From: an uncultured Alphaproteobacteria bacterium
Lineage (GTDB): Bacteria > Pseudomonadota > Alphaproteobacteria > Rs-D84 > CACZYB01
Direction: 5' to 3'
NCBI GenBank assembly: GCA_934246625.1
Contig: CAKQHZ010000001.1
Location: 232,338 to 296,337, forward strand
DNA length: 64,000 nt
The notes under the pieces are model-generated. The model was given only the letters and a program-made list of their open reading frames with translations, was not told the DNA's origin and made no database searches. Shown in pieces: positions 6,294 to 38,354 of the stretch. Within the stretch, counting starts at the first letter, position 1, and every line of letters starts with the position of its first letter. Made by a program: the position numbers and the translations under genes.

Positions 6294-8123
6294 TTATATT
6301 AAATTATCAGCAAGTTGTATCCAGTGTTCTTCAATACTGGATATTTCTTTTTGGATTAAACTTAATTCCTTTGAAAGTGCAGTGATTTCATTTGAGGAAA
6401 TTGGAGTTGAAAGCTCCTCGACTATTTCATCCTTTCGAGAATTTAACTCTTCTAATTTATGTTCAAGTTTTTGAAGATTTGCACGAATTTGTCGGATTTC
6501 TTTTTGATTTTGTTGTTTGACTTGAACAACGGGATTTTCCTGTTTTTTCTCAACCAAAACTTCCTTTGGCTTTGAAAGAAGGAAGTTTTTATAATCATTA
6601 AGTGAACCATCAAACATTTGACAAGTATGATTATCAACAAGATATAAATCATCAACTACCATATTTAGAAAATTAAAATCGTGGGTGATAAGCATAACTG
6701 CACCGTTATAATTATTTAATGCTTCAATCAATGCTTCGCGAGCAGAAATATCCAAATGATTTGTTGGTTCATCAAGTATTAAAAGTGATGGAGAATCGAT
6801 TGAAAGTTTTGCAAATACAACACGGCTTTTTTCACCACCAGATAATTGTTTGATTGGTGTAATACTTATATCACCTGTAATTCCAAAATTACCAAGATGC
6901 GAACGAATTTGTGTTTCATTCAAATCAGGTAAAAGTGTTGAAAAGTATTCAAGTGGAGTTTGGTCAAGTGGTAATTCTTCGGATTGGTGTTGGGTAAAAT
7001 ATCCAATTTTTAATTTTGGATTTTTAAATATACTTCCAGACATAAGTTTTAAATCACCATAAATAAGTTTTGCCAATGTTGATTTTCCATTACCATTTTT
7101 ACCAAGGATACCTATTCTGTCGCCCTGTGAAATATTCAAATTTAATTTTGTTAGGACTGGAGTATCAGTATATCCAACCGAACCATTTTCAATTTTTATA
7201 ATTGGTGATGGAATAACAGGAGCTTCCTTAAATTCGAAATGTGAAGATTTATCAAGAGCGGTTATAGTAATATCTTCCATTTTGTTTATCATTTTTAAAC
7301 GGCTTTGAGCTTGCTTTGCCTTGGTGGCCTTATACCTAAATCTATCAACAAAAGATTGAAGATGTGCTTTTTGCTCTGCTTGCCTTTTTGCAAGTTTTTC
7401 TTCGTTTTCGTGTTTTAGTAGATAATTTTTATAAAATCTGTCGTAATTGCCAGAATAAAAAAACAATTTTTTATTTTCAAAATGGATTATATTTTCACAA
7501 ATGTCATTAAGGATATTCTTATCATGACTTATAATTAACAAAGTCCCCTTATATTTTTTCAAATAATTTTCAAGCCAAATTGAGGCCTCTAAATCCAAAT
7601 GGTTTGTAGGTTCATCAAGAAGTAATATTGTTGAATATTTAAACAATGCACCAGCAAGAGCAAGTCGCATTCTCCAACCACCAGAAAAGTCAGATACTGG
7701 ACGATTAAAATCTTCGTTTTTAAAACCTAATCCATTAAGTATGGTTGAAATTTTTGCCTCGGCTTTATCACTATCTAAGACACGAAGTTCTTCATAAATT
7801 TCAGGCAATTCTTCGGGTGTTGCTGTTTCCAATTTTTTACGGGTGTTGATAAGCTCCTTATCCTTACTTAACACAAAATCAATAATTGAAAGGTTGATGT
7901 CGTAAAATTCCTGTTCCACAAATGAAATTTTTTGATTATTCGAAAATATAACCTTGCCATCAGTTGGTTCCAATTCCTTTTTAAGTATTTTAAAAAGTGT
8001 TGATTTTCCACAACCATTTAAACCAACAATACCGATTTTTTGATTATCAAAAATTTGGACTGAGGCATTTTCAAGCAAAGTCCTTGATTGCATATAAACT
8101 GTTATATTTTCTATATTTATCAT
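6294..8123 (-). CDS. ABC-F family ATPase (translation-associated; two ABC domains plus C-terminal coiled coil)
   Basis: Two Walker A motifs (GLNGCGKST, GKNGNGKST), two LSGG signatures, and an inter-domain linker. Confidence 0.85.
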   Translation of the reverse strand: MINIENITVYMQSRTLLENASVQIFDNQKIGIVGLNGCGKSTLFKILKKELEPTDGKVIFSNNQKISFVEQEFYDINLSIIDFVLSKDKELINTRKKLETATPEELPEIYEELRVLDSDKAEAKISTILNGLGFKNEDFNRPVSDFSGGWRMRLALAGALFKYSTILLLDEPTNHLDLEASIWLENYLKKYKGTLLIISHDKNILNDICENIIHFENKKLFFYSGNYDRFYKNYLLKHENEEKLAKRQAEQKAHLQSFVDRFRYKATKAKQAQSRLKMINKMEDITITALDKSSHFEFKEAPVIPSPIIKIENGSVGYTDTPVLTKLNLNISQGDRIGILGKNGNGKSTLAKLIYGDLKLMSGSIFKNPKLKIGYFTQHQSEELPLDQTPLEYFSTLLPDLNETQIRSHLGNFGITGDISITPIKQLSGGEKSRVVFAKLSIDSPSLLILDEPTNHLDISAREALIEALNNYNGAVMLITHDFNFLNMVVDDLYLVDNHTCQMFDGSLNDYKNFLLSKPKEVLVEKKQENPVVQVKQQNQKEIRQIRANLQKLEHKLEELNSRKDEIVEELSTPISSNEITALSKELSLIQKEISSIEEHWIQLADNLI

Positions 8124-17904: not shown

Positions 17905-18873
17905 TTATCCTTTATCTGGAAAAATTCCCAAACATTTATGAAATTCTGTTCTTAATTCATTTACAGATTTAAAAGGAATACAGAAGAAATGTATAACAAA
18001 AGAGTCTAATCCTTTCATTTTTAGTTTATTTTGAATAACTATATTCAATTTCGGTATTTCTTTTCGAATTTTCTTTTCTACATCTGAAATAGTTTCTTGA
18101 TTGGGAGATTGAGGATAATAATTATCTTGTTCAAAGCCAACAAAAGCTATGGCTCTTATTTCGAGTTTATTAAATTTAGGACTATCTCTATCTAAATACT
18201 CCTTAAGTACATCTTCCATTTTTTTATCATTAAGATCTATAAACTGCTTTAATAGAATAAAATCCCTATTATCTGCGGACAAGATACCACCATTCGCATT
18301 AAGTAAGGTATTTAAGCTATTTAAGCAATCTTCAACTGCGGTAGGAAAATCTTTATAAACTTTTGATTCTCCCCAATGTAAAGCTAAATTATTATCCTCT
18401 GTTAATCCAAGATATACTCCATCTGCACCATGGAAGTACATATTATGATTTGTTTTTAAATTCATTTTACATATCACTTGGGGAATTTTTAAAAATTTTT
18501 CTGCTAATACAAATAAAATTAGTTCACCTAATTCACCTGACTTAACACTATCGACAAATGTTTCCTGTGCTTCTTGCCGTAATTTCATCATATTTCTGGT
18601 TGTTGAATTTTGGTTATCCCTATTTTTTGCTTCAACAATACGACTTCTTGGAATTACATAATCAATTATATCACAAACCACACAATCCACAAAATCTTTT
18701 GTTCGATCCCGTCCGTTGCCATCTAATTCAATACAATGCCAATAAGATATTGTTTCTGTTTCATCTATCTTTTTTTCTTTTTCTACAGTGTGTAAGAAAG
18801 CTTCATAGCTATTGAAATCACCCCTAGCTAATCTATTTAATATACTCAATAAAAAATCTTCGTTCTCAGACAT
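17905..18873 (-). CDS. PD-(D/E)xK-like protein, candidate Hachiman HamA (DUF1837-like)
   Basis: The E ... D ... ExK pattern (GELGE, HGADGV, HWGESKVY) sits directly upstream of, and translationally coupled to, the helicase. Confidence 0.45.
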   Translation of the reverse strand: MSENEDFLLSILNRLARGDFNSYEAFLHTVEKEKKIDETETISYWHCIELDGNGRDRTKDFVDCVVCDIIDYVIPRSRIVEAKNRDNQNSTTRNMMKLRQEAQETFVDSVKSGELGELILFVLAEKFLKIPQVICKMNLKTNHNMYFHGADGVYLGLTEDNNLALHWGESKVYKDFPTAVEDCLNSLNTLLNANGGILSADNRDFILLKQFIDLNDKKMEDVLKEYLDRDSPKFNKLEIRAIAFVGFEQDNYYPQSPNQETISDVEKKIRKEIPKLNIVIQNKLKMKGLDSFVIHFFCIPFKSVNELRTEFHKCLGIFPDKG

Positions 18874-20939: not shown

Positions 20940-21050
20940 TTTTAAGGAGTTAAAATTGTTAACTATTTGTTTTTGCTAGTATTTTGCAAAAGATAAAATT
21001 CTTTAAATTGATTAAAGTGAGAAATAAAAAATCAGTAAAATCAAAGATTT

Positions 21051-21103
21051 TTTAGTGGTGCCGGCACACGGACTCGAACCGCGGACCTGATGATTACAAA
21101 TCA
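21051..21103 (-). repeat. Partial copy of the tRNA-Thr 3' end plus 6 flanking nt: direct repeat/att site marking the distal island end
   Basis: The 53-bp stretch ttttagtggtgccggcacacggactcgaaccgcggacctgatgattacaaatca is identical to 38274-38326. The sequences diverge immediately after it. Confidence 0.7.
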
Positions 21104-21349
21104 TAAGGGCTATTATTTTACAATTTTTGATTGTAATTTATTTTATTGTATAATCAATATGTTAAATCGTTTTATGAAAATTTTAAGATTTACCAAAATT
21201 GATGTATTTTGACCTTTTTTGATAAAAAATACGGCAATAATTCGGCAATGAAAATTGAATAAAAATCCTTGATTTTAGCAATGTATATACTTATAATTAA
21301 ATTATGATTCGGCAATAAATGAAACAATTAAGGAACAAAGGGTTAAAAA

Positions 21350-22378
21350 ATGGAAAATAAAGGAAATATTATAATATACAAAGATGAAAATGGCACAGTT
21401 AAGGCTAATGCTTTATTTGCCAATGAAACTATATGGCTTACACAAAAAGGAATGAGTGAACTTTTTGATATAGACCCTTCTGGTATAAGCAAACATATAC
21501 AAAATATATTTAATGACGGAGAATTGGCAGAAAACACGACTCTTGCAAAATTTGCAACTGTCGTAAATCGAGGTTTTCGTGGTCCAATAGAAGAGGAACT
21601 TGATTACTATAATCTTGATATGATTATTGCTGTCGGATATAGAGTAAATTCCAAAAAAGCAACTGCTTTTCGTATTTGGGCGACAAATGTTTTAAAAGAA
21701 TTTATTACAAAAGGCTTTATCCTTGATGATGAACGCTTAAAAAATGGAAATATGTTCGGTAAAGATTATTTTAGAGAATTATTAGAACGTATTCGTGATA
21801 TTAGGATTAGTGAAAAAAGACTATATCAACAATTAAAAGATATTTACGCCCTTTCCGCTGATTATACAAAAGATAATAAAGATGCCTTACGATTTTTTGC
21901 AACAGTCCAAAATAAAGTGCATTTTGCAATTACTGGAAAAACTGCTCCTGAAATTATATATGAAAGAGCAGACTCTGAAAAATCTAATATGGGACTTACA
22001 TCTTGGAAAAATTCACCAAACGGAAAAATCTCCAAATCAGATATTGGTATTGCTAAAAATTATCTTAATGATTCCGAATTACAAGATTTAAGGGGAATAA
22101 TAAATATGTTCCTTGATTATGCAGAAATGCAAACAAGAAATAACAAACTAATTTATATGAAAGATTGGGAAAAACGTCTTGACGACTTTATAAAATTTAA
22201 TGAAAAGCAAGTTTTATCAAATGCCGGAAAGATATCTCGTATGACAGCACTAAGAAAAGCCTTTTCTGAATATGATAAATATAAAGAATTATTAAGAATA
22301 GAAGAAAAGGAACAAGCTGAAAAAGAAATAGAAACAGATATAAAAGAATTAAATGAAATTTTAGTGAAGAATAATTAG
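21350..22378 (+). CDS. RhuM-family protein (virulence/DNA-binding family common on islands)
   Basis: N-terminal IIIYKDENGTVKANALFANETIWLTQKGMSELF pattern, and the family-typical length. Confidence 0.55.
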   Translation: MENKGNIIIYKDENGTVKANALFANETIWLTQKGMSELFDIDPSGISKHIQNIFNDGELAENTTLAKFATVVNRGFRGPIEEELDYYNLDMIIAVGYRVNSKKATAFRIWATNVLKEFITKGFILDDERLKNGNMFGKDYFRELLERIRDIRISEKRLYQQLKDIYALSADYTKDNKDALRFFATVQNKVHFAITGKTAPEIIYERADSEKSNMGLTSWKNSPNGKISKSDIGIAKNYLNDSELQDLRGIINMFLDYAEMQTRNNKLIYMKDWEKRLDDFIKFNEKQVLSNAGKISRMTALRKAFSEYDKYKELLRIEEKEQAEKEIETDIKELNEILVKNN

Positions 22379-22435: not shown

Positions 22436-23596
22436 ATGTCAAAACAATTTAACTTCACCAAAAAAGATATTGATGCATTGCCAGTGCCAAACAAAGGTTT
22501 TGCCACCTACTCTGACACAACGGAAAAAGGGTTGAAACTCTACATTACTCCAACAAGGACAAAGACTTTCTTTATTCGTAAATTTATAAATGGGCGGGAT
22601 GAACGGCTTATCATAGGTCCGTATCCGGATTTGACTATTTCACAGGCGAGGGAGAAAGCAAGAATTTTAAAGGGGACTATTGCAAACGGCATCAACCCAG
22701 CGGAGGAGAAAAGAAAACTTCGCCGTGATATGACCGTTGCGGAATTTTTTGATTACTACATTACAAATTACTCCACAAAGAAAAAGCGCCCTAATTCCAT
22801 CAGGTCGGAAAAAACTTTGTATAAAAATCATATTGCAGATTTTCTCGGGTATAAAAAGATGACCTTGGTGCAAAAGGCGGACATTGAACGGATTTTAAAG
22901 CCCTTGGTAAATCAAGGCAACTTTGCCACAGCAAACAGGATACTTGCCCTGTTTTCTGGTATGTATAACAGAGCGATTGAATGGGGTTATCCCGATGAAA
23001 ATCCGACAAAGGGGATAAAAAAGCAACGCGAAAAATCACGGGAGAGATTTTTGCAACCTGATGAATTGCCACGATTTTTTGAGATGTTAAACTCTGTTAA
23101 AAATGAGAATTTTAAAAACTATATATTGCTTTCACTTTTTACGGGGCAACGAAAAAATAATGTGCTTTCAATGAAATGGGAGCAGATAGATTTGTCGCTT
23201 GGGATTTGGTTTATACCACACACGAAAAATGGAGAAAGTTTGAATTGTGCGTTGAGTGATGAGGCAATAAAACTTCTCTCTGATATAAAACAAAATACAA
23301 CCTCCGAGTGGGTTTTGCCAAGTGAAACTTCCTCCAGCGGGCATTATGAAGAGCCGAAACGGGCTTGGAGAACCTTGCTTAAAAATGCAGGGATTGAAAA
23401 TTTACATCTTCATGATTTAAGGCGAACCCTTGGAAGCTATCAGGCGATAGGCGGTTCAAGTTTACAAATAATTGGTCAATCTTTGGGACATAAATCCTTG
23501 CAATCTACACAAATATACGCCCGCCTTATCAAAGCTCCCGTCCGCCAAAGCACAAACATGGCCGTCGCGAAAATTTTGGAGTATGCGAAGAGGTAG
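22436..23596 (+). CDS. int: Tyrosine integrase, P4-like (N-terminal arm-binding DUF4102-type domain)
   Basis: KGLKLYITPTRTKTFFIRKF arm domain. Catalytic motifs are HDLRRT and LGHKSLQSTQIYARL (the Tyr nucleophile). Confidence 0.9.
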   Translation: MSKQFNFTKKDIDALPVPNKGFATYSDTTEKGLKLYITPTRTKTFFIRKFINGRDERLIIGPYPDLTISQAREKARILKGTIANGINPAEEKRKLRRDMTVAEFFDYYITNYSTKKKRPNSIRSEKTLYKNHIADFLGYKKMTLVQKADIERILKPLVNQGNFATANRILALFSGMYNRAIEWGYPDENPTKGIKKQREKSRERFLQPDELPRFFEMLNSVKNENFKNYILLSLFTGQRKNNVLSMKWEQIDLSLGIWFIPHTKNGESLNCALSDEAIKLLSDIKQNTTSEWVLPSETSSSGHYEEPKRAWRTLLKNAGIENLHLHDLRRTLGSYQAIGGSSLQIIGQSLGHKSLQSTQIYARLIKAPVRQSTNMAVAKILEYAKR

Positions 23597-23758: not shown

Positions 23759-24364
23759 TTATTTCGTATGCTCATCTCCAATTTTTATATATTTTCTATA
23801 AATTTCCACAGGATTTAGTTTAAAAATTTCTGTTAATATATCATGCTCTTCATTTACTATTTTTGTTCGCTCATTGTCGACAGGGAGATCTTCTATTTTA
23901 AAATTTAAAATAAATGCTTTCTTAGCTTTATTTAACCATAGTTCAGTATATTCAACAATATCTTTTGGTAAATAAAGTCTTGCTTCTGAAAATGCTTTAT
24001 AAATATAATTATGAGCTTTTGCATTAACATGACCGGCTCTCCAACATTCTGATATAAATGAATTAACCAAATTATAATTATCCAAAAACAATTTTCTTTC
24101 ATCATCTGTTAATACTTGTTTTTGAGTCATAAAATCAATTTCATAATCTTTAAATTTTATACGAGATAAATCCATATATTTAAATATCCAACAAACAAGA
24201 GCTATAATTCCAAAATAAAAACCTTTTAAATCAAATAAAATTAAAATAAAAGATATGACAGGAATTAGCAATAAAAAGAAATATTTTATTGAAATATTAT
24301 ATTGAGATAAATAACTTTCTAAATTTCCATACCAAATTTCTACTTTATTTACTTTCTTATTCAT
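23759..24364 (-). CDS. Hypothetical membrane protein (two N-terminal TM helices)
   Basis: Hydrophobic segments YFFLLLIPVISFILILF and GIIALVCWIF, with a cytoplasmic C-terminal domain. Confidence 0.3.
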   Translation of the reverse strand: MNKKVNKVEIWYGNLESYLSQYNISIKYFFLLLIPVISFILILFDLKGFYFGIIALVCWIFKYMDLSRIKFKDYEIDFMTQKQVLTDDERKLFLDNYNLVNSFISECWRAGHVNAKAHNYIYKAFSEARLYLPKDIVEYTELWLNKAKKAFILNFKIEDLPVDNERTKIVNEEHDILTEIFKLNPVEIYRKYIKIGDEHTK

Positions 24365-24368
24365 ATTT

Positions 24369-24716
24369 TTATTTTCCTTGAAACAATTTATTTAAAATAA
24401 ATTCAAAACCTTCATCTTTTAATTTATCAACAGCTACATAAAAAGGAATATTGTTAGTAAGATAAACTAATGATTTATAGACTGTATTATAATCAAGTTC
24501 TTCATATTTAACTATTTTAACATTTGTAAATATAGATAATGCGTTGATAGATTGTTTATATCTTTCCATAGATTTATTTAATCTATCTTGTAGTTCATTA
24601 AAATTATTTCTCCTTATAACCTCTATATTTTCATGATAAAAAGATATATCTTCTCCTAAATCATAAGAAGATTTCATTATTTTTAATCCTTCATAGACAT
24701 CATCAAATGTAATCAT
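24369..24716 (-). CDS. Hypothetical protein (upstream partner of the membrane protein)
   Basis: ORF only. It lies 4 bp from the downstream gene. Confidence 0.3.
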   Translation of the reverse strand: MITFDDVYEGLKIMKSSYDLGEDISFYHENIEVIRRNNFNELQDRLNKSMERYKQSINALSIFTNVKIVKYEELDYNTVYKSLVYLTNNIPFYVAVDKLKDEGFEFILNKLFQGK

Positions 24717-25148
24717 ATTCTCTATCCTTTCTGTAATTTATTATAATTCTGTATGTTTTTTAATATTCTATTTACATTTTGTTTATTTACAATATTTTAT
24801 TTCCTTCAAAACATACCACATTCAACCTATTTAGCACCGTTCAGCCACCTTTGTAACCGTTTGCAAGCACTTTGAGACTACTTACAACTGGTAAGTAAAG
24901 TGTTTTTTTATTAAGTATAACATATTGAAAAGATGGAGTAAAACTTGAAGTTGTTTTTTTGACTCGAAAGTAGCTTGCCCTAATTCTGCAACCATTTAGA
25001 ATTTTTTTGAACCAAATACCAACCTGTTTGATAGTTTTTATACCATTAGTTAAAGTTCTATACTAATAAAATCTTTACATCCTATATTGAAATTTAAGGA
25101 CATATTTCTTATATAATAATATATAATTGAATTAAGAAAAGGATTAAA

Positions 25149-26615
25149 ATGTTTTATGCAAATTGGATATTTTTCTTAGGTGATAAAGAAAATAAATATA
25201 AAATTTTTGTATATGGACTTTCTTTACCAACAAATAAAAAAGAAAAATATGTTTCTAAATTACAAAAACTTTGTAAAATTGATAATTATAATTTATATAT
25301 GTTATGTGCAATTACAGAGATAAATAATATTATACAAGATAATACTATAAATTTATCAATTATTTCTGATGAATTACCTCAAATAAAATATTTATGTTCA
25401 AAAAAATTTATTCAACCTGCTGACCCAGGAGAGGCATTGTCATATATTAAAAGTCCTATAAATAGTTTAACAAATATTACTAGCTACTATACTAAAGAAA
25501 TTTTAACAAAAGAGTTTTTAAACGAAGATTTAATTATTCTCTTGAAGCAATTAAATGATATATTAAATCAAAGGTTTTATGGAGAATATTCAAAAAGATT
25601 AGGTTGCTTTGAAATAGGAGAAATACAAACTTGGGCAGAAGATATTATTCCATTTTATTTTAAATTTGATAAAAATAATAATGACTATATTTTTCATAAA
25701 AGAAATGATTTTAAAGAAGATCTTTATATTGTTTTAAAATGTTATTTATCAGATAATGAGAAAATATATGAAAATATAAAATTTGTTTCTAAAACAGATA
25801 ATGATATTCAATTCAATGGAATTAAAGAGCATTGGATATATGAAGCTTCTATATATAATAATACAGGAAATTTAATACATGAGGAAAAATATTTCTATAC
25901 AAAACGTATTTGGTTAAATATATGTCCTAAACCTTCAAATAAAATAAAAATAGAAGATGTATATTCTGAAAAAGATGCTAATTTAAGGACTGTAGATTCT
26001 GCTATATTTACTACTCAATCTATAGTAAATAATCCGTATATTGATATTAAATATGATGAAATAGAAAAATTACATAAAAATATAGAACAGAGAATAAACA
26101 ATTATAAAATCTCTGAAAAAGAAGGAGCATTCTTTTCAGAAAAGGATAAATTAAATTCTATAATAAATTATCTTAATTCTATTAACTTAAAAAATGATAA
26201 AATTATCATTATTGATCCTTATATTGATATAGATTCTTTATCATTAGGGTTGAGATTACATTCAAGCGAATTATTGGTGATTTCTTCAAAAAATCCGCCA
26301 CATATGCCAAAATCCAGTATCAAGCAAAATATACAAAATATACTTAAAGTGAAAAAAGAAAATAATATAAACAGTATTAAAGTTCATTTTATTGAAAAAC
26401 GATTTCATGATAGATTTATTATATTTTTTAATAATCATGAAAAAGATATTTATAGTATATCAAATAGTGTTAACTCCTTAAAAACAAATCCTAATATATT
26501 AATTACAAAATTAAATGGAAAAGTTAGATTTGATGTAGAAAAATATCTTGATACATTAATAGAATTATGTAAACCAGAAAATACAGTTGAAGAAATTTTA
26601 AAAAATGATAAATAA
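25149..26615 (+). CDS. Hypothetical protein (unknown cargo gene A)
   Basis: AT-rich ORF. The C-terminal region KIIIIDPYIDIDSLSLGLRLHSS...FHDRFIIF suggests a possible nucleotide-binding or nuclease-like fold. No confident family was found. Confidence 0.3.
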   Translation: MFYANWIFFLGDKENKYKIFVYGLSLPTNKKEKYVSKLQKLCKIDNYNLYMLCAITEINNIIQDNTINLSIISDELPQIKYLCSKKFIQPADPGEALSYIKSPINSLTNITSYYTKEILTKEFLNEDLIILLKQLNDILNQRFYGEYSKRLGCFEIGEIQTWAEDIIPFYFKFDKNNNDYIFHKRNDFKEDLYIVLKCYLSDNEKIYENIKFVSKTDNDIQFNGIKEHWIYEASIYNNTGNLIHEEKYFYTKRIWLNICPKPSNKIKIEDVYSEKDANLRTVDSAIFTTQSIVNNPYIDIKYDEIEKLHKNIEQRINNYKISEKEGAFFSEKDKLNSIINYLNSINLKNDKIIIIDPYIDIDSLSLGLRLHSSELLVISSKNPPHMPKSSIKQNIQNILKVKKENNINSIKVHFIEKRFHDRFIIFFNNHEKDIYSISNSVNSLKTNPNILITKLNGKVRFDVEKYLDTLIELCKPENTVEEILKNDK

Positions 26616-27858
26616 AAAGTTTTGTTTTAAGAAATTAACTGATACTAAACCAGAAGTTGTATTGACTAATTTAATAAAAAAATTTAACTCTAGGAGAAAT
26701 ATTAAACTTATAAAATATGTTGAAGCATTATCATTATTATCTCATATAAGAAATGAAAAAATTTTTAAGTATCAATTAATAAAAATATTGAAAACAAAAT
26801 TACTTAATAATATTTATAATAAATTAGAGGATTTACCTAGTACTTTTGATGAGATTAATATAGATATATCAGAAATTGATAGTTTAATTAACTCAGAATT
26901 ATCATATAAATTAATAGACAATATTGCAAAAACTGAAATTAATATAAATAAAAATTATAAATATTATGGAATCCGTAACTTATTTCAATATTTATTGGAA
27001 ATAGATTTACAAAATTTTGAAAAATTTATATCAGAAACAAATAGAGATGATTTTAAAATAATATTTGTAAGTATTCTTTTATCTATATTTCCAATATTAG
27101 AAGATATATATAAAAATTGGGATAAAGCTACCTTAGGTATTTTACAGGCATATTATGCAAATATATACTACAATAATAATCCTCACTATTGGCAATTTAA
27201 TTTAAATAAAAATAAAGAGATTAATACAATATTAAAAACAAACTTACCTAATAAAAGTAAATTTATAATATATTTGAAGTATATTATTCAGAAATATCAC
27301 GGTAAAAAATTCACTAATTTATTAAAAGATAGTGAAATTGACAATTTAGTAAATAACCTATTATCTATAGATTATAACTTCACTTGTGAAGAACTATTTG
27401 CTCAATCTCCAGTTTTTTATTCTTCAATATATTTGATAATTATAGATAATGTTTCTGATAAAAAGAAACAATACGAATTTGCTTCTTTCTTATATGAAAA
27501 ACTCATAAATTGTATTGAAAAAAATAATTCAGAATATTATGTTCAATACATAGAATATGCAAATATATTGGGTGATTTAACTATAATTATGAATAATTTT
27601 GATAAACTAGATAAATTATTTAATCAAAATTATAAACAATTATTATTTCCATATAGTTTTTGTAAAAGACAAGATTGGAATGAAAAGATATTATTATTAC
27701 TTTATATACTAATATCAATAAAAATAGTATATGATGGAAATGATATTTCCAACTACTTACATAAATTTAAAGAAGTAAAGGGCAAGCACTTGACAATGCT
27801 AGAAAAAATAAATCCTGATATCTATAATCAGATAATCAAACAATTAGACAATAATTAA
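26605..27858 (+). CDS. Hypothetical protein (unknown cargo gene B, overlapping A by 11 bp)
   Basis: ORF only. It is helical and repeat-like, and translationally coupled to gene A. Confidence 0.3.
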   Translation: MINKKFCFKKLTDTKPEVVLTNLIKKFNSRRNIKLIKYVEALSLLSHIRNEKIFKYQLIKILKTKLLNNIYNKLEDLPSTFDEINIDISEIDSLINSELSYKLIDNIAKTEININKNYKYYGIRNLFQYLLEIDLQNFEKFISETNRDDFKIIFVSILLSIFPILEDIYKNWDKATLGILQAYYANIYYNNNPHYWQFNLNKNKEINTILKTNLPNKSKFIIYLKYIIQKYHGKKFTNLLKDSEIDNLVNNLLSIDYNFTCEELFAQSPVFYSSIYLIIIDNVSDKKKQYEFASFLYEKLINCIEKNNSEYYVQYIEYANILGDLTIIMNNFDKLDKLFNQNYKQLLFPYSFCKRQDWNEKILLLLYILISIKIVYDGNDISNYLHKFKEVKGKHLTMLEKINPDIYNQIIKQLDNN

Positions 27859-27940
27859 AAGAAATAAGCTCTTATAATGGAACATACAAAATATAAATAT
27901 TAAAATCAATGTTAATATATATTTAGATAATTATGTATTA

Positions 27941-29749
27941 TTATGATTCTTTAATCTTATTCAACCAAAATAAATACCATTTATCCTGAATATGTTCTTT
28001 AATTTTATTCTCAATACTAAGAGTATTCAATTTGTTATTTTCTAAACAAAAATTATATAGAATTAAAAATTTAGATAAAGGATAACCCTTTTTATGTTTA
28101 TTTTTAGGAAATAAATATTCTTTTAAATAATGTATATTTTTACATGATCTAATTTCATCCATATTATAAATTACAGAAGATGCATCATTATAGTCACGTT
28201 GTAAAATGAAACTACGTAAATCATTGTATTCATCTTTTAAGTCTGGTAATAAACGAAAAAGAATAGATGAAACTTGTCTAGTTAAAAATGAATTTTTGAT
28301 CCAAAGATTTCGATATTTATTTATATGTTCATAGATAGATTTTGGTGTTTCATATTTAGCAGCAAACCATAAGTAACTATAAAAATTAAATTCTTTATCC
28401 TTAATAGTTAATGATTTTAAATATTTAGATATATAATTTATATTTTCAATATCCACTCTTGAATATCCAATATTCCAATCTATAATTAAAGCAACCAATA
28501 AAAATAACGTTATATCATCATATCTTGTAATATTTATCAATGATTGAAAAATTTTATATGTTTTTTTAGTATATCCTAATTTATATAAATATTGACATAC
28601 ATTAGTTCTCAGATCTGAATATTCTTCAAAAATTCTTGGTAAATATTTTAAGATTTTAGTAAAATTGTTATTTCCAGCAATAGTCAAAAATCTTTTTAAA
28701 ACCTTATCAAAATTTTTATATTGTTTATTCTTGTTCCAATGTCTTCTAAAATATTTCATAAACTCTTTTTCTTTTGGGGGATTTTTGTCAAATATATTTA
28801 ATTGAATATTTTCGTCAAATAAAAAATGTCTTTTTGCCTCAGAAGCATCAAGAATCTTTGTTTTTGACATATTAAGAGACAATCCTCTACTTTTTAAAAC
28901 ATCAGATATATTGCTTAAAATTGACTTAGCCTCCCTTATATCATCAATACCAATAACAATATCATCCATCCATCTTACAAAATTTTCATTTATTTGATAT
29001 TTTAATAAGTAATCAATTTCAAAAAGAAAAGAATGTGCTAATAGTCTAATTGCTTCTAAATTAATTGTAGGCATTCCAATTGATTGATTGGGTAAATAAT
29101 CTGGTTTCCATGATAAATCTTCAATTATATTAAAAATTAAATCTAATAAAACTTCGTCACATTTGATATACCCAGAAACTACACTTCTTAACTCATTTAA
29201 CCGTATACTATCAAAATAATTTGATAAATCTGTTATAATAATATATTTTTTTGTTTTTGTAAATTGAAGAATTTCATTTTGATATATTTTCCATTGTTCA
29301 AACCAATCATTATAATCCGTATTTATTTCATGAGGAAGTTTAATAGAAGAACTTTTATCTCTAGAATAATAAGCATGATTTGAAGGTGCCTGTTTTTCTA
29401 AATCATTACAAAAAGGTTCTATAAGAGCTTGTAAAATAAGAGTGTCACTAGGAGATAAAATAATCATATGGCGACAAATGCCAAATTTTTTCTCTAATGT
29501 ATATATAATTGGTATTTGCGATTTATATTGACCAGAAATAATTTGTTCATTAATTTTACTTGTATTATAATCTATTCTTCTATGAAAATCATAAAAATCA
29601 TGTAAATCAAGAATACTCATACTCCTTACTTGACTCTTAACTTTATGTTTCCATAATGTTTTTAAAGTATCCTTTTTAAATGGATTTTCTAACTGTTTTT
29701 GCCTTTTTTTAAATCTTAACGTTATAGGTTTAGACATTTTAAAACTCAT
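27941..29749 (-). CDS. Reverse transcriptase, stand-alone Abi/defence-type (AbiK/Abi-P2/UG-like), with an RT domain plus a roughly 300-aa helical C-terminal extension
   Basis: RT motifs are FGICRHMIILSPSDTLILQALIEP (1/2), IITDLSNYFDSI (A), GMPTINLEAIRLLAHSF (B'), FVRWMDDIVIG (C, with MDD replacing YxDD) and SLNMSKTKIL (D). There is no maturase, endonuclease or intron-like domain. Confidence 0.8.
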   Translation of the reverse strand: MSFKMSKPITLRFKKRQKQLENPFKKDTLKTLWKHKVKSQVRSMSILDLHDFYDFHRRIDYNTSKINEQIISGQYKSQIPIIYTLEKKFGICRHMIILSPSDTLILQALIEPFCNDLEKQAPSNHAYYSRDKSSSIKLPHEINTDYNDWFEQWKIYQNEILQFTKTKKYIIITDLSNYFDSIRLNELRSVVSGYIKCDEVLLDLIFNIIEDLSWKPDYLPNQSIGMPTINLEAIRLLAHSFLFEIDYLLKYQINENFVRWMDDIVIGIDDIREAKSILSNISDVLKSRGLSLNMSKTKILDASEAKRHFLFDENIQLNIFDKNPPKEKEFMKYFRRHWNKNKQYKNFDKVLKRFLTIAGNNNFTKILKYLPRIFEEYSDLRTNVCQYLYKLGYTKKTYKIFQSLINITRYDDITLFLLVALIIDWNIGYSRVDIENINYISKYLKSLTIKDKEFNFYSYLWFAAKYETPKSIYEHINKYRNLWIKNSFLTRQVSSILFRLLPDLKDEYNDLRSFILQRDYNDASSVIYNMDEIRSCKNIHYLKEYLFPKNKHKKGYPLSKFLILYNFCLENNKLNTLSIENKIKEHIQDKWYLFWLNKIKES

Positions 29750-29819
29750 TAAATATTATTTTGCAAAAATATATTATCTTTATAAGTCTTTTTCAATAAA
29801 AAATATGAATTATTATCTT

Positions 29820-32800
29820 TTATCCAAACAATCTATCCAGTTCTTCTTCTAAAATACCTTCCTTAACAAGAGGAAGTGTATCAACTTGTTTCAAATTATG
29901 TTTTTGAATGAAATTTTCATTATCGAAACCAAGGATATATGATATAGCAATACGATAAATTATTTCTGTCGGTGCTAATCCATAAACTTGCTTTTCAAAA
30001 ATATGCTTTAATCTATCTTTTGAATCAGGATAAATCTTTATCAATTTAGGATTATTATATAATCGTTTTACAATTTCAGTGATATATAATCCTGATTTCA
30101 TATATAAATCAATAAATGTTTTATCTGGATCTGTAAAGCAATCTGGACATTCTTTTTCTAAATTATCTACCATTTCTTTTACTACTTTTTTAGGCGTAAA
30201 GATTTGGTTTGTTTTTTGTGGTGGAATATAATCAAAAATATCCTCAGTGTTATTTTCATCAAAATAATTGGAAAGTTTAGTTTTCAAATTTAAGAATTCC
30301 TTAATGGAATCATTGAAAACAATAGGATCAAATAGATGTCCATCAAAATGCTCCATTTTTCCTGTTTTTTCATCTTTATAATCTCCACCATCACGTAAAA
30401 ACTTAAATTCAGCAAGAGAAATACTTGTAACTTCTTTAAATACTTCATCTGGTATAATTGTATCAAAGTTTTCTAATGTTGTGTTTTCATTACCATAAGC
30501 CATTAAAAATGAAGGTATTGTTCTTGAAAAACCTCTTAAATAGTCTCGAACTGAATCTTCTATGGCTGTTTTTTCTTTTTGCCTTTTATCTGTTTCTACT
30601 CTTTCAATAATTGTATTTCCTGTATTTTGAATAAGTTCAGGAAGTTTATTCTTCAATTCTGAAATAAATGTTGTTTTGTTTTCAGCAACTTTCAAATCAT
30701 ATAGTTCATTAATTTTATCTTTTTCAAAATCAGATGCTGTTTTTAATTCTTTTTTTCGTTCTAATTCTGTCTGATTTTGTAAGATTTTATAATTACCATA
30801 TTCTTTATCAAAAACCTGATTTGTTGTATTTAATATTGTTTGAGTAATTTTCTTTAAAGAGCTGGTTGTTACAGCATTTTTGTAGTTTGTTTTTACTGTA
30901 TCAACAAAAGTTTCTTCAACTTTAGCTTTAAATGTATCTTTTAATTCTTTTAATTTCTCATCATCTTGTTCAGGTTGGTTATTTTGCAATTCATTTACAG
31001 TTTCAACTAAATCTTTATTAATACTTTCATAAATCTTATCTCCAAATATTTCATTCGCTTGACCAATAATAAAGTTTTGTGAAAGTTCTACTTCTCCATC
31101 TTCATTTAAAGATAAATCATCTTTTGTATTTTGATTAATTGGTAAAGGTTCTTTTGTCTTTTCAAATTTTTTTATAATATCAACAACTTCTTGTGGTGCA
31201 TTGAATATGTTTCCAATATTCTGGAATAAGAAATTACTCATAAAACCACGTTGAACGACTTCTTGTGCATGGATTTTACGAGGAATAGATAATACCTGTT
31301 CAGCCTTAAGAAGTATCATTTCACCATCCTCATCTTCACCATAAACAGGGAAAAAGTTTAAAAGTTCTCTAACATTTTGTTTCCTTGTATCACTATCACC
31401 TTGTCCACTTGTTGTATTTATACTTAAATCGTTAGCAAATTTTTCAACAATTTCCAAAGTTCTTGCTGGATCAAAATCAAATACATAAGCATTTTCTTTT
31501 CTAAAGAATTGTCTATCTTTATGGAATATACAAGGATTTTGCGACCTGAAAGCTGTTTGCATATATAATGCTGGACTTTTAACATTACCAAGCATTAAAA
31601 CTGCTGTCCATTCAGGAATTGTAATTCCAGTAGTTAATTGTCCTACAGATAGAGTAATTGTCTTTTCATAATTCTTTATGCCATTAACAACTTTATTAAA
31701 TGCATTTTCACGTTCTTCGTCTTCATTAAGTTTACCATCCCCAGCGGCAACAATAATTTCATAATTTTTAAATATAGGGTGATTTTTTAATTTTTTTGCC
31801 AAAGCTTTAACACTACCAACTCTATCTAAAAACCAGAATGTATGATTAAGTTCATCTCTTAATTCTTGAGTTGAAAATGGAAATTTAGTTTTTATAGTTA
31901 ATGCATCCAAAAATTTATCAACGGCTTCATCATACTTAAAACTTCCATTTTCATTTGTTGAAAAGAATTCATTCAAATCAAAAGCATATTCTCTAATATC
32001 ATCATCAGATAAATTGCATCCCTGTTTTACCTTGTCTTCAATAATATCTGACATCTTATATGTATAAAGATTTAATTGAGGTAAGTTTTGATAAGGATTT
32101 TCTTCTTCGTTTGATGTATCCCAATTTTTTTTTGCATTTTGTTCATCAGCATAAGTCCAATTAAATATAGCTTTCTCTTCAAATTTATTATTTGCTAAAG
32201 CTTTAAATGGCGTTCCAGATAAATGAAGTGTAAATTTTCTTTTTATTTGATCAAAGGCAATGTCAGTATGATATGTATCAACACCTTCATGTGCTTCATC
32301 AATTACTAATAAATCCCAGTCTAAATCTTTAATCTCTTTAAGTTTATCATATTTTCCACCAAAGTAGATTGACCCTTTTAAATCTTGTAATGATACAAAT
32401 TCAATACATCCTTTATGATTTCCATCGTTAAGTTTATTTAAGTATTCTTCTCTTGATAGAACATATTCTTTACTTTTCAAAGTACTAACTTGACTAACAA
32501 AATAATATCCTGAATTGGTACCTAAAAACCTTTCATAATCAGCATACCAAGAATTAGCAATAGCTGGTCTATTCGTTACAATTAAAACTTTTTTTGCATT
32601 TATCTGTTTGCATAAGTCATAAGTTGATAATGTTTTACCAAATCTAGGTTTTGCATTCCATAAAAATTCTGGTTCATCATCTTTATGACTTTCAAAATAT
32701 TCTTTTGTTTGAGAAACAGCATTAAATTGCTCATTTCTAAGTTTGTATTCTATTACAGGTTTTGTTTCTAAAATTCCTCTGTTTTCTTTAAATTCATAAA

Positions 32801-33119
32801 ATTTTTCTTTTGAATCTTTTGGGGATATTTTAAACCATTCTGTATCCGGTTTTCTTTCAATATTGTTTTTCTTAAGGTAAGCGTGAAAATCTGTATCATG
32901 GAAAACCTCGCCAGAACCATCCTCATATATAGCATTAGATTTCCATTCCAATACAAATTTTACATCTGCAGTTTGAGTTTGCTGTTTTATACGAGTTTCG
33001 ACATCTTGTTCTGTAAAACCAATCTTTGTCCATCCATCATGTTCTTTAATCTCAGGAGTTGTATATGCATAACACATAGGGACAATTTTCTTTAATGTTT
33101 TAATATTTAGTTTTACCAT
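29820..33119 (-). CDS. Multidomain protein: N-terminal T5orf172 (GIY-YIG-like) domain, SF2 helicase (ResIII-type, DEAH), long linker, and a C-terminal degenerate MTase N-lobe
   Basis: CYAYTTPEIKEHDGWTKIGFT...VETRIKQ is T5orf172-like. Helicase motifs are Walker A NAKPRFGKT, LLVIDEAHEG and LSGTPF. The C-terminus carries IFTPKKVVKEMV (motif X), FIDLYMKSGLYI (degenerate motif I) and QVYGLAPTEIIYRIA (motif II), with no NPPY. The start is taken at the internal MVKLNIK, 1 nt after the upstream gene's stop. The track start at 33155 overlaps the upstream gene. Confidence 0.7.
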   Translation of the reverse strand: MVKLNIKTLKKIVPMCYAYTTPEIKEHDGWTKIGFTEQDVETRIKQQTQTADVKFVLEWKSNAIYEDGSGEVFHDTDFHAYLKKNNIERKPDTEWFKISPKDSKEKFYEFKENRGILETKPVIEYKLRNEQFNAVSQTKEYFESHKDDEPEFLWNAKPRFGKTLSTYDLCKQINAKKVLIVTNRPAIANSWYADYERFLGTNSGYYFVSQVSTLKSKEYVLSREEYLNKLNDGNHKGCIEFVSLQDLKGSIYFGGKYDKLKEIKDLDWDLLVIDEAHEGVDTYHTDIAFDQIKRKFTLHLSGTPFKALANNKFEEKAIFNWTYADEQNAKKNWDTSNEEENPYQNLPQLNLYTYKMSDIIEDKVKQGCNLSDDDIREYAFDLNEFFSTNENGSFKYDEAVDKFLDALTIKTKFPFSTQELRDELNHTFWFLDRVGSVKALAKKLKNHPIFKNYEIIVAAGDGKLNEDEERENAFNKVVNGIKNYEKTITLSVGQLTTGITIPEWTAVLMLGNVKSPALYMQTAFRSQNPCIFHKDRQFFRKENAYVFDFDPARTLEIVEKFANDLSINTTSGQGDSDTRKQNVRELLNFFPVYGEDEDGEMILLKAEQVLSIPRKIHAQEVVQRGFMSNFLFQNIGNIFNAPQEVVDIIKKFEKTKEPLPINQNTKDDLSLNEDGEVELSQNFIIGQANEIFGDKIYESINKDLVETVNELQNNQPEQDDEKLKELKDTFKAKVEETFVDTVKTNYKNAVTTSSLKKITQTILNTTNQVFDKEYGNYKILQNQTELERKKELKTASDFEKDKINELYDLKVAENKTTFISELKNKLPELIQNTGNTIIERVETDKRQKEKTAIEDSVRDYLRGFSRTIPSFLMAYGNENTTLENFDTIIPDEVFKEVTSISLAEFKFLRDGGDYKDEKTGKMEHFDGHLFDPIVFNDSIKEFLNLKTKLSNYFDENNTEDIFDYIPPQKTNQIFTPKKVVKEMVDNLEKECPDCFTDPDKTFIDLYMKSGLYITEIVKRLYNNPKLIKIYPDSKDRLKHIFEKQVYGLAPTEIIYRIAISYILGFDNENFIQKHNLKQVDTLPLVKEGILEEELDRLFG

Positions 33120-33120
33120 A

Positions 33121-33501
33121 TTACACCATCTCCTTTTTATCCAATTGAATTCCATTTACTTTTGTTTTTAATTGTTCAATTAGTTTATATTTATGTTTTT
33201 TGATATAATATTTACGTAAAAATAAAGAAATAATTTCTATAAATAATCCAATAAAATAAATATACACGTTATCTATATATAAAGTTTCAAAAATATTAGA
33301 AATGGTAAAAGATAAGATACCAACACATTTTAAATATCTTTCTTTTAAATATTCTTCTATCAAATTTGTATTACAATCTAAATATGTTGAACTTTTTGCT
33401 AAAATATGCTCATCTGAATCTAAATTACATATTATTAATATAATACCAAATATTTGCAAAATAAGTTTTAATACAGTAGATAAACTTAAATAAATAAACA
33501 T
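33121..33501 (-). CDS. Small membrane protein (3 predicted TM), translationally coupled to the helicase gene
   Basis: Hydrophobic segments LILQIFGIILIICNL, VGILSFTISNIF and IYFIGLFIEIISLF. The TAA stop lies 1 nt before the downstream ATG. Confidence 0.35.
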   Translation of the reverse strand: MFIYLSLSTVLKLILQIFGIILIICNLDSDEHILAKSSTYLDCNTNLIEEYLKERYLKCVGILSFTISNIFETLYIDNVYIYFIGLFIEIISLFLRKYYIKKHKYKLIEQLKTKVNGIQLDKKEMV

Positions 33502-33516
33502 TTTTACTCATCTCCT

Positions 33517-34506
33517 TTAGACAGTTTTTTGTTCAATATACTTTATTTCTTCTAATGTAAGATTATATTTTTCATATAAATCTTTGTTGTTCCATTTCTT
33601 TGAAAAATCTTGGATAGGTACAAATTTATAAACATTTCTTGCTGCATTTTGTGATTTTTTTATTTGAGATATTAAGTATTTATATAGATTAGTATTCATA
33701 TATGAAATAACATTTTCACATATTTCTTTACTATCAAATGGTCCCACAACTAAATATGTTTCATTACAAGCTGTTCCTGGTGCTCCATAGAATGGTAATC
33801 CATTAAATTTTGCAGAAATTTCTCCTGCTTTTGATACATAAACTTTATGCTGATCAATCCATTCTTTTTTAGAAATAATTTTATTTCTATCTATATATGC
33901 AAACTTTTCATCTGAACGATCTCGAGAAAATCTATAAATTTTAATGGAATTTTTTTCTTTTTTATTTGAAAAATAATTTTTATAATTTCCAACTTTTCCA
34001 TTAGCAAAAGGAGAATATGTTGAAACTAAATCCATAAATGATGCAAAATCTTTAGAATATATTCCAACTTTAGTTACTATTTCATCAGCTTTTGGATCTC
34101 TTATAAAAAATTCTGTTCCATGTTCAGCCATGTTCCTAATATCTGTTTTCACTATATCGCCATCTATATAGGTATATTTTGTATGTGCTGTAACATTTTT
34201 ATCATATATAAAGTATGATACACCACCAGCTAAGGAAATATTTGTTTGAAAAACCTTATTTGCATCAGTATAATCAACCATAGATGAAATATGATTATTT
34301 TTTAACATAAATTTTCTAAATTCATCTAAACCAGTTCCACCTGTCATCCATAAACTTGGTGTAATCATAGAAACATAATTAGCTTTTAAATTAATTGCAC
34401 TTTGTACAAAATGATGATAAACAGGATTTGCTTGAGAAATAGATCCTGAATTATTTGCAACTAATTCCTGATAAGGTGGGTTTCCAATTATAACATCAAA
34501 CTTCAT
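33517..34506 (-). CDS. N6-adenine DNA methyltransferase catalytic and target-recognition half (gamma-class, Eco57I/TaqI-like)
   Basis: The protein begins at motif IV: MKFDVIIGNPPYQ. It lacks the AdoMet-binding motifs X and I, which are found in the upstream ORF. Confidence 0.75.
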   Translation of the reverse strand: MKFDVIIGNPPYQELVANNSGSISQANPVYHHFVQSAINLKANYVSMITPSLWMTGGTGLDEFRKFMLKNNHISSMVDYTDANKVFQTNISLAGGVSYFIYDKNVTAHTKYTYIDGDIVKTDIRNMAEHGTEFFIRDPKADEIVTKVGIYSKDFASFMDLVSTYSPFANGKVGNYKNYFSNKKEKNSIKIYRFSRDRSDEKFAYIDRNKIISKKEWIDQHKVYVSKAGEISAKFNGLPFYGAPGTACNETYLVVGPFDSKEICENVISYMNTNLYKYLISQIKKSQNAARNVYKFVPIQDFSKKWNNKDLYEKYNLTLEEIKYIEQKTV

Positions 34507-35438
34507 TTTTTAGCTCCTTTCAAATCTTTGAAATAGATAGTTTTTCCACTACGCCAATCTTTGATTTTGCAAAGTATTGGTGTCGAAAGTTGTATATCTG
34601 TATTAAATAAATCTGGTTGAAAATAATCTTCTTCTGTTGTTGCAAATGGTACAGTATCGTTTAAACCATCCATCTGCCATATATTCCATGAAATAATATT
34701 TGCAATTTGCTCAATCTGTATAAGACTTGGTTCTTTATGATATTTATTCTGATAGTAATCAATAAAAGTCCAAAGCAAATTTTCCCTTGCCAATAATAAA
34801 TTATCGCCTTGGTATTCATAACCATAGGTACTTTCAAATGCTCGCTTAACCCAATTAAACCAATCTGTATCATTATTTGTGTTTTCGTTAACGACACGAA
34901 GTTTTCTATCTAAAATACCTATACGTTTTATGATTGGTAAGATTTCACCAGTTGTGGTATCATATCTTGAAACTAAATATGGTGCCTCACCACAAGTAAT
35001 TTCAAGTCTTCTTGAATCGACATAACTTTTCCAATCCTTGTCGTTAAAATCTATAAATCTTTCATTTGGTATCCAATCTTGATTTTGTTGGATATTGAAT
35101 ACATTTTTGTAACCAAACCATTCTTCATCACAAAGATTATTCATTTCATTACAAATCCAAGATGGAGTGAAAACTTCTGCTGATTTATGGGTACGATTTT
35201 TTTGTTCTTCTTTGTTTTTGGCAATTCTTGGCTGAATAATAGAGGTATTCTTATCAATAATTAATTCAGGTAAGATTTCTTTTTCTTTTGAATAATCATC
35301 ACCATATTTTAGATATTCATCGCATGCCCAATGGATATATCTCCCTGTTGTCTTATCCCTTAGTAATATCTTTAAAAGATAAGGACTTAAGACATGTATA
35401 TATTGCTCAAGAATATCTATGTTACTTTCAATAACCAT
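34503..35438 (-). CDS. N6-adenine MTase N-terminal (AdoMet-binding) half; a split MTase or a frameshift-separated gene
   Basis: AEVFTPSWICNEM is motif X-like and LEITCGEAPYL is motif I-like. The ORF overlaps the NPPY ORF by ATGA. Confidence 0.5.
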   Translation of the reverse strand: MVIESNIDILEQYIHVLSPYLLKILLRDKTTGRYIHWACDEYLKYGDDYSKEKEILPELIIDKNTSIIQPRIAKNKEEQKNRTHKSAEVFTPSWICNEMNNLCDEEWFGYKNVFNIQQNQDWIPNERFIDFNDKDWKSYVDSRRLEITCGEAPYLVSRYDTTTGEILPIIKRIGILDRKLRVVNENTNNDTDWFNWVKRAFESTYGYEYQGDNLLLARENLLWTFIDYYQNKYHKEPSLIQIEQIANIISWNIWQMDGLNDTVPFATTEEDYFQPDLFNTDIQLSTPILCKIKDWRSGKTIYFKDLKGAKK

Positions 35439-35554: not shown

Positions 35555-36163
35555 TTATATATGCTTTTGTAAATGATTTTTTATATATTTATTGAGTGTT
35601 GGTTTAGTAATTTTTAGTTTTTTTGCAACAATATATTTGGGTAATCCTAATCTTAAAAGACTAATGATTTTATCTTTTTTCTCTTCAAGTTTATTGTGCT
35701 TATTTTTACTTCCCTTCGGTCTTCCAATTGTGGAACCTTCTAAAAGTCTGCGTTTCAATCCCTCTATAGTCCTTTGACTTATCAAATCTCTTTCCATCTC
35801 TGCAAATGCACTTAAGATTGCTATCATCATCTTTCCCATAGGGGTGTTATCAATCGACATTCCTTGCTTTACAAGATAACAATTCACACCTTTTTTCACA
35901 AGCAACTGACAAGTATTTATAACATCACTTGTTGATCTTCCAAGTCTAGATAGTTCTGATGTTATAAGCACGTCTCCTTTATCCAATATTTTTAGTAAGG
36001 TTCCCAGTTTACGTTTCTTTGCAAGAATTGTGCCACTGACACCTTCATCAATATATTCTTTATCTATTTTCCAATTCATTCTGTTTACAAAATCTATTAC
36101 TCCAAGTTTTTGACTTTCATAGTTTTGCAATTCTGTAGATACTCTGTAATATGCATATATCAA
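35555..36163 (-). CDS. Serine recombinase (resolvase/invertase), paralogue of the 14406-14993 gene
   Basis: MIYAYYRVSTELQN, SELSRLGRS, and a C-terminal HTH. Confidence 0.8.
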   Translation of the reverse strand: MIYAYYRVSTELQNYESQKLGVIDFVNRMNWKIDKEYIDEGVSGTILAKKRKLGTLLKILDKGDVLITSELSRLGRSTSDVINTCQLLVKKGVNCYLVKQGMSIDNTPMGKMMIAILSAFAEMERDLISQRTIEGLKRRLLEGSTIGRPKGSKNKHNKLEEKKDKIISLLRLGLPKYIVAKKLKITKPTLNKYIKNHLQKHI

Positions 36164-38071: not shown

Positions 38072-38278
38072 AATATACCCTTCTATTTTAAAATAGATAC
38101 AGCTACTATTCTACTTCTTATATCCAGCTCTATTTTAAATATAATTCCACAATAATCAAATCTTTTTCCCCTGCAAATTTCTGCAAAAATTCGGCAATGA
38201 TTCGGCAATGGAAATTTTGCACGCAAAACTCATCGTTCTTACTAACTTCATAACTCATTGATTTTTGGATGGTTTTAG

Positions 38279-38354
<76 letters not shown>

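Follow-up and report, generated by a model that had tools for sequence, protein, structure and literature searches.

What defines Class 1 of the UG/Abi reverse transcriptases (RTs) is an alpha-helical HEAT-like domain (alphaRep) at the C terminus, which is missing from the Class 2 enzymes (PMC9226505). In AbiK, DNA is joined to Tyr44 of an N-terminal loop; its extension is untemplated, and the nascent strand is cradled by the helical domain (PMC9508834). DRT4 forms a dimer of trimers, primes on Tyr125 in a palm segment (109–156) and yields random single-stranded DNA (ssDNA), which is shielded from exonucleases by ORF55 of phage T5; the outcome is abortive infection, and DRT6 acts in a similar way (PMC12783706). 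In DRT3b, synthesis is primed on Tyr666, and the protein specifies the product, poly(dCdA) (PMC13174585). Mestre et al. 2022 (PMC9226505) distinguished two subgroups within UG13, namely UG13a, which has the longer proteins (about 600 amino acids), and UG13b, and rated a defence role of the former "inconclusive". Here, we describe a UG13a RT encoded in a 64,000-nucleotide (nt) stretch of contig CAKQHZ010000001.1 (the window, to which all positions refer) from an uncultured alphaproteobacterium of the human gut. With a probability of roughly 0.7, we propose that it is a stand-alone Class 1 UG/Abi RT-like polymerase that would, as an oligomer, carry out tyrosine-primed, untemplated ssDNA synthesis for abortive-infection defence.

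The gene lies in an uninterrupted open reading frame (ORF) at 27941..29749 on the minus strand, corresponding to 602 amino acids (aa). Its likely start is the second ATG at 29737, which gives a protein of 598 aa, as indicated by gene callers and by the alignment of homologue N-termini. An identical product of this length (P0001) was predicted on 15 metagenome contigs, each time from the second ATG, and residue numbers throughout refer to this form. An earlier note on this DNA, referred to below as the initial annotation, had described the gene, and we could confirm it as an intact, real ORF. Pfam revealed RVT_1 only (E=4.5e-10). Maturase, HNH and RNase H domains were found neither with Pfam nor with NCBIfam, in line with the initial annotation, which had listed these and any intron-like domain as absent. 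The RT core motifs 1–7 align motif by motif with group II intron RT structures (profile, E about 1e-11), which bears out their earlier recognition. The features of the gene and its upstream gap are the following.

27941..29737, minus strand: UG13a reverse transcriptase gene, 598 aa plus stop; the upstream ATG at 29749 gives the maximal ORF
29576..29737, minus strand: N-terminal extension, residues 1–54, with acidic loop D-L-H-D-F-Y-D-F (translation; loop 39–54 in the model)
28847..29575, minus strand: RT fingers and palm, residues 55–297, motifs 1–7 (Pfam RVT_1, profile alignment, model)
29306..29392, minus strand: flexible loop, residues 116–144 (QAPSNHAYYSRDK...), preceding the helix before motif A (translation)
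29216..29245, minus strand: motif A YIIITDLSNY with predicted catalytic Asp170 (translation; D170 at least 97% conserved)
29090..29113, minus strand: family-specific loop S-W-x-P-D-Y-L-P, residues 209–216, just upstream of motif B (loop in the model)
28961..28975, minus strand: motif C R-W-M-D-D with predicted catalytic Asp258 and Asp259 and a Trp at the position usually held by Tyr/Phe
27944..28846, minus strand: C-terminal all-helical alphaRep (HEAT-like) domain, residues 298–598, replacing the thumb/maturase domain
29768..29796, minus strand: promoter-like site TTGAAA-17 nt-TATATT in the upstream gap (consensus scan, 10/12 matches; AT-rich, near chance frequency in shuffles)

The family was assigned with PADLOC. 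Its profile RT_UG13a (PDLC03749) was matched with E=2.3e-178 and 592.8 bits, residues 10–598 aligning to positions 3–588 of 589. The runner-up, UG21, reached 95.5 bits (E=7.9e-28), followed by Drt8, UG13b (87 bits), UG20 and UG19. Judged from this group profile, the RT is a full-length, ordinary UG13a member of the Class 1 UG/Abi group. No NCBIfam model was passed at its cut-off: the group II intron RT/maturase model TIGR04416 gave 59.9 bits (cut-off 300), AbiA 43.1 bits (250), Drt4 29.3 bits (450) and Drt5 22.4 bits (550). Besides Mestre et al. 2022, a full-text literature search found no relevant paper naming UG13a.

A word-indexed search returned 605 relatives of the RT, the nearest beyond the identical cluster sharing 63–70% identity and most 40–45%. 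When 1.84 billion cluster representatives were searched exhaustively with a profile, 378 proteins scored E<=1e-30, each standing for a cluster at 50% identity, and 989 scored E<=1e-10. The hosts of the family are Bacteroidota, Proteobacteria, Chloroflexota, Cyanobacteria, Bacillota, Nitrospirota and some archaea, and full-length members are uniformly about 600 aa long (590–620 aa). The RT shares with the UG13a group the end-to-end profile match, this length, the combination of RT and helical repeat, and the stand-alone arrangement. No substantive difference from the group was seen, the copy being at most 70% identical to any other cluster found.

An AlphaFold2 model of the monomer, built with a 38-sequence alignment, reached a predicted local distance difference test (pLDDT) of 87.1 and a predicted template modelling score (pTM) of 0.86. 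It exhibits an N-terminal helical extension with the loop 39–54, a fingers and palm part ending near residue 297 and a helical domain of residues 298–597; residues 127–141 form a low-confidence loop with pLDDT below 50. Residues 298–597 are wholly helical in the model, in agreement with the helical C-terminal extension of roughly 300 aa proposed initially. The nearest structural matches, extending across both domains, are DRT6, DRT4, Abi-P2, AbiK and AbiA. The two values obtained for each of them in the fold comparison are given in turn.

DRT6 (9wy8): 21.6; 424
DRT4 (9vdo): 20.8; 418
Abi-P2 (7r08): 19.9; 388
AbiK: 16.3; 440
AbiA: 16.3; 370

In a profile search against PDB sequences (E up to 10), only the cores of group II intron, diversity-generating retroelement and Cas-associated RTs were found, and AbiK, DRT4 and DRT6 went undetected; the tie to the solved Class 1 enzymes therefore rests on the fold. 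DRT6 (UG12) and DRT4 (UG15) (PDB 9wy8, 9vdo, 9l9s; PMC12783706) are single-gene Class 1 defence RTs sharing just 13–14% identity with the present protein, which is about 100 aa longer. AbiK, Abi-P2 and AbiA (PDB 7r06/7r07, 7r08, 8oz7; PMC9508834, PMC11077055) belong to other UG/Abi groups, and HMMER detects no similarity to their PDB sequences; the large form of AbiA carries a HEPN domain that our RT lacks. Similarity to AbiK/Abi-P2 or to unclassified UG RTs had been suggested initially. The Abi-like fold and the placement among the UG groups held, whereas "unclassified" did not, since the family is catalogued as UG13a with a PADLOC model of its own.

Conservation was counted in an alignment of 178 homologues. 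D170, D258 and D259 are conserved to at least 97%, and R255 and W256 are conserved as well; the predicted catalytic triad D170/D258/D259 is intact. Motif C reads R-W-[MLNC]-D-D in 178 of 178 sequences. Because its Trp (W256) is invariant, WMDD is a Y-to-W signature of the family and no oddity of this copy. In comparison, DRT4 carries YIDD and group II intron RTs YADD. The non-canonical motif pointed out in the initial annotation is therefore real, with Trp replacing Tyr/Phe, but peculiar to no single gene. Two further stretches accompany it: the N-terminal motif D44-x2-D47-x-Y49-D50-F51, in which D44, D47 and D50 are conserved to at least 97% and Y49 occurs in 170/178, and the loop upstream of motif B, in which W210, P212, D213, Y214, L215 and P216 are conserved to at least 97% (Y214 in 177/178). 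The signatures RWMDD, SWxPDYLP and DxxDxYDF are thus common to our RT and the homologues.

Since fold and architecture are alike, the same basic chemistry as in the solved Class 1 enzymes is proposed as the most probable one. By analogy with those enzymes, the UG13a protein would form trimers or hexamers, an assembly on which activity depends in Class 1, and the first nucleotide would be joined to a tyrosine of the protein itself. The ssDNA would then be extended without a nucleic-acid template, and the helical domain would hold the growing strand at the template position. Host exonucleases would keep the product low in uninfected cells. Upon infection, a phage ssDNA-binding or annealing protein might stabilize or unleash it, and the cell would die or arrest ahead of phage release, resulting in abortive infection.

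Several tyrosines could serve as the primer. By position, Y49 is a candidate similar to AbiK Tyr44, and Y123/Y124 may be the analogues of DRT4 Tyr125, although this counterpart is only loosely conserved: Y124 is found in 163/178 homologues, and in 8/178 both positions lack a Tyr. In the helical domain, Y383, Y462 and Y541 are present in 178/178. Assignment of a unique priming tyrosine was given up, as neither conservation nor positional analogy singles one out among Y49, Y123/124, Y214, Y383, Y462 and Y541.

The genomic setting of the gene was examined as well. FtsH of the host shares 83% identity with proteins labelled as belonging to Alphaproteobacteria metagenome-assembled genomes, and one of the contigs derives from a gut metagenome with the label Hadza. 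A perfect 54-nt direct repeat, not expected by chance, is located at 21050–21103 and 38273–38326 and copies the 3' half of a tRNA-Thr gene. It bounds a 17.2-kilobase (kb) integrative island at this tRNA gene, of which the RT is cargo. The island and its surroundings contain the following features; two small ORFs lie in the island besides the annotated genes.

15310–17901, minus strand: Hachiman HamB helicase (E=1.5e-278), just outside the island
17905–18873, minus strand: Hachiman HamA (E=3.5e-106), just outside the island
21350–22378, plus strand: RhuM-family protein, PADLOC candidate defence gene PDC-S05 (Pfam E=1.4e-104, PADLOC E=1e-134), beside the integrase at the island edge
22436–23596: tyrosine integrase, within the island
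25149–27858, plus strand: VPA1262-like two-gene operon, convergent to the RT; genes overlap by 11 nt; guanine–cytosine (GC) content 19–21%
29820–35438, minus strand: restriction–modification (RM)-like cluster, directly upstream of the RT and co-directional
34503–35438 and 33517–34506, minus strand: two methyltransferase genes of the cluster, type II/IIG-like, overlapping by 4 nt; the gene at 33517–34506 begins at the NPPY motif
35555–36163: Mpi-family serine recombinase, within the island
38279–38354, minus strand: tRNA-Thr, its 3' half duplicated in the 54-nt repeat

The label "defence-type" given to the RT initially is well supported by this locus, with its island, RM-like genes and a complete Hachiman system; for the family as a whole it is unproven, in accordance with the "inconclusive" rating in Mestre et al. 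2022. The Hachiman position is occupied by a cytosine methylase and an HNH protein in a second assembly (L002) of the same organism, and can therefore be regarded as a variable defence spot. Since the gene is intact, has a promoter-like site of its own and resides on a delimited mobile island beside defence genes, it is a reasonable representative for asking whether UG13a defends against phages and what the Trp active site makes.

The family-wide link of UG13a to defence is weak. Among 133 neighbours from 27 other UG13a loci, type I RM, Shedu SduA, AbiEii and PDC matches occur in a scattered manner. The likeliest of the alternatives, although we consider it unlikely, is the following: the same Class 1 untemplated, protein-primed polymerase might have a role other than defence, either in DNA-damage tolerance or as a selfish, addiction-type gene moving alone. 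Besides the inconclusive association in Mestre et al. 2022, it is favoured by the mostly housekeeping neighbours at these 27 loci and by close homologues that adjoin serine recombinases or metabolic genes; further, a related PrimPol-RT is reported to play a part in an oxidative-damage response (PMC12439943). On the other hand, the gene considered here is island cargo together with RM-like genes and adjoins Hachiman, some other UG13a loci neighbour the defence genes just mentioned (type I RM, Shedu SduA, AbiEii), and all tested single-gene Class 1 relatives (AbiK, Abi-P2, DRT4, DRT5, DRT6) are reported to be anti-phage.

A number of observations weigh against the proposal of an abortive-infection polymerase. 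The neighbours in the 27 other genomes are mostly housekeeping genes such as RtcB, MreB and tRNA synthetase, no UG13a member was found among 50,697 phage records, and just 7/72,556 plasmids carry one. The group is experimentally uncharacterised, and the sole paper found that names it rates its defence association "inconclusive" (PMC9226505). With regard to the structure, Foldseek TM-scores amount to just 0.45–0.54, the solved Class 1 enzymes are too dissimilar in sequence for HMMER to find, and the NCBIfam scores for Drt4, Drt5 and AbiA are far under the cut-offs. None of the loop tyrosines is strictly invariant (Y49 170/178, Y124 163/178, Y214 177/178), and because AbiK Y44, DRT4 Y125 and DRT3b Y666 all differ, the priming site of the solved enzymes is not transferable to UG13a. 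Finally, the invariant Trp of motif C, unlike the YIDD of DRT4, may signal a different active-site behaviour.

Room for a distinct chemistry is left by the motif C Trp, SWxPDYLP and DxxDxYDF, all of them invariant among UG13a proteins but missing from the solved Class 1 enzymes, together with the weak link to defence islands. UG13a could then be more than another maker of random ssDNA, by virtue of a sequence-biased or protein-templated product similar to DRT3b, an unusual priming site or substrate, or a role outside defence; at present this seems doubtful. Template-free, protein-primed polymerases are of interest as DNA-writing enzymes. This RT would gain in interest if UG13a made a distinctive product or played a distinctive role, and only the invariant Trp and the family-specific motifs hint at that. 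As it stands, the finding leaves the current understanding unchanged: a catalogued family was correctly recognized, and a new member is added to a bioinformatically defined group.

The stand-alone nature of the proposed Class 1 polymerase was investigated in 80 loci from GTDB species representatives, in which ORFs were called and clustered. The RT was the sole gene common to them, save for synteny among four near-identical Nostoc loci, and three homologues at 67–70% identity were located in unrelated settings, alongside an autotransporter, glycosyltransferases or serine recombinases. No partner gene is thus conserved, which supports the earlier statement that the RT stands alone. The two nearest divergent homologues with context (67–70% identity; L091, 5657–9791, and L088, 667–3366) each lie directly downstream of a zinc-ribbon serine recombinase, which suggests that this RT sub-clade travels on small recombinase-borne elements.

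Participation in a multi-gene system, either with the helicase–methyltransferase cluster (29820–35438) or with the VPA1262-like pair (25149–27858), is improbable in view of these loci, as neither partner is found beside the RT at the other 79 GTDB loci or beside the 67–70% identity homologues. It would be in accordance with the position of the RT, co-directional with and 70 nt downstream of the 1111-aa T5orf172/ResIII protein, and with the unusually low GC content (19–22%) that it shares with the convergent pair. Against it, a promoter-like site lies in the gap, the helicase gene upstream ends in a terminator-like hairpin, and PADLOC assigns the methyltransferases to ordinary type II or IIG RM components. 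A homologous methyltransferase and helicase (31% identity) do occur 2–6 kb from the UG13a RT of a Bdellovibrio metagenome-assembled genome (L015, 11490–15419); being the only such instance in 63 well-flanked loci, it is better explained by joint residence in defence islands than by a functional link. The GC content across the VPA1262-like pair and the RT (positions 24000–29000) amounts to 19–23%, compared to 28–35% elsewhere in the island and in the chromosome on either side, and this difference suggests that pair and RT were acquired separately from the RM-like cluster.

It is slightly less probable again, and highly improbable overall, that the RT copies an unrecognised non-coding RNA (ncRNA) inside or overlapping the neighbouring sequence, similar to retrons, DRT2, DRT9 and DRT10; DRT3a is counted among the ncRNA-dependent RTs as well. 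Upstream of the gene the gap comprises 70 nt, or 82 nt if counted from the likely start, and downstream it comprises 82 nt. On both strands of both flanks, folding was no better than that of shuffled sequence (z=+0.05 to +1.8), Rfam at E<=1 over 20–40 kb returned nothing but tRNA-Thr, with no intron RNA or msr/msd, and an all-against-all blastn of 400-nt flanks from about 60 loci showed no conservation beyond close relatives. The initial annotation had reported no structured ncRNA upstream and had named the gaps 29750–29819 and 27859–27940 as places to search; none was detected there by folding or Rfam, although an RNA conserved in structure alone may have escaped these checks. In plain sequence comparison, group II intron RTs come closest to the RT domain (E about 1e-11; TIGR04416 59.9 bits), which would suit an RNA template. 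Against this, the alphaRep domain and the fold over the whole length match the untemplated Class 1 enzymes, whereas the ncRNA-dependent RTs (DRT2, DRT9, retrons) match the model over the RT core only.

The reading of the gene as a degenerate remnant or a fragment of a group II intron or retron RT, an outcome that the initial annotation had named as refuting its own, is effectively refuted itself: fingers/palm motifs 1–7 are shared with these RTs, which give the best plain-sequence matches to the core, but this similarity is generic to the RT domain, TIGR04416 remains far below its cut-off (59.9 vs 300 bits), maturase/X and endonuclease domains as well as intron or msr/msd RNA within 20–40 kb are missing, and the 300-aa helical repeat is part of a uniform 600-aa layout conserved across bacteria and archaea. 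Taken together, the initial interpretation is supported.

The remaining observations concern the neighbourhood of the stand-alone RT. The 488-aa protein of the VPA1262-like operon barely passes the NCBIfam model of the VPA1262 N-terminal domain (81.3 bits vs cut-off 80) and its 417-aa partner gave no matches; the two could be an uncharacterised defence pair. The RM-like cluster further holds a 126-aa hydrophobic ORF and a 1111-aa protein combining T5orf172/MUG113 with a ResIII helicase. A methyltransferase-like C-terminus of this helicase was considered and rejected, since against the N-terminal methyltransferase part just a 16-residue match at the FTP motif was obtained (E=0.049, not significant). 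Just inside both island ends, at 21226–21251 and 38175–38211, a second, imperfect repeat family (AAAATTCGGCAATGA-like) is present, which may represent integrase arm sites. Farther from the island, a 609-aa protein at 6294–8123 on the minus strand matches PADLOC mad3 (E=1.7e-46) and, more weakly, AriA and ATPase-Toprim models, and may belong to another defence system.

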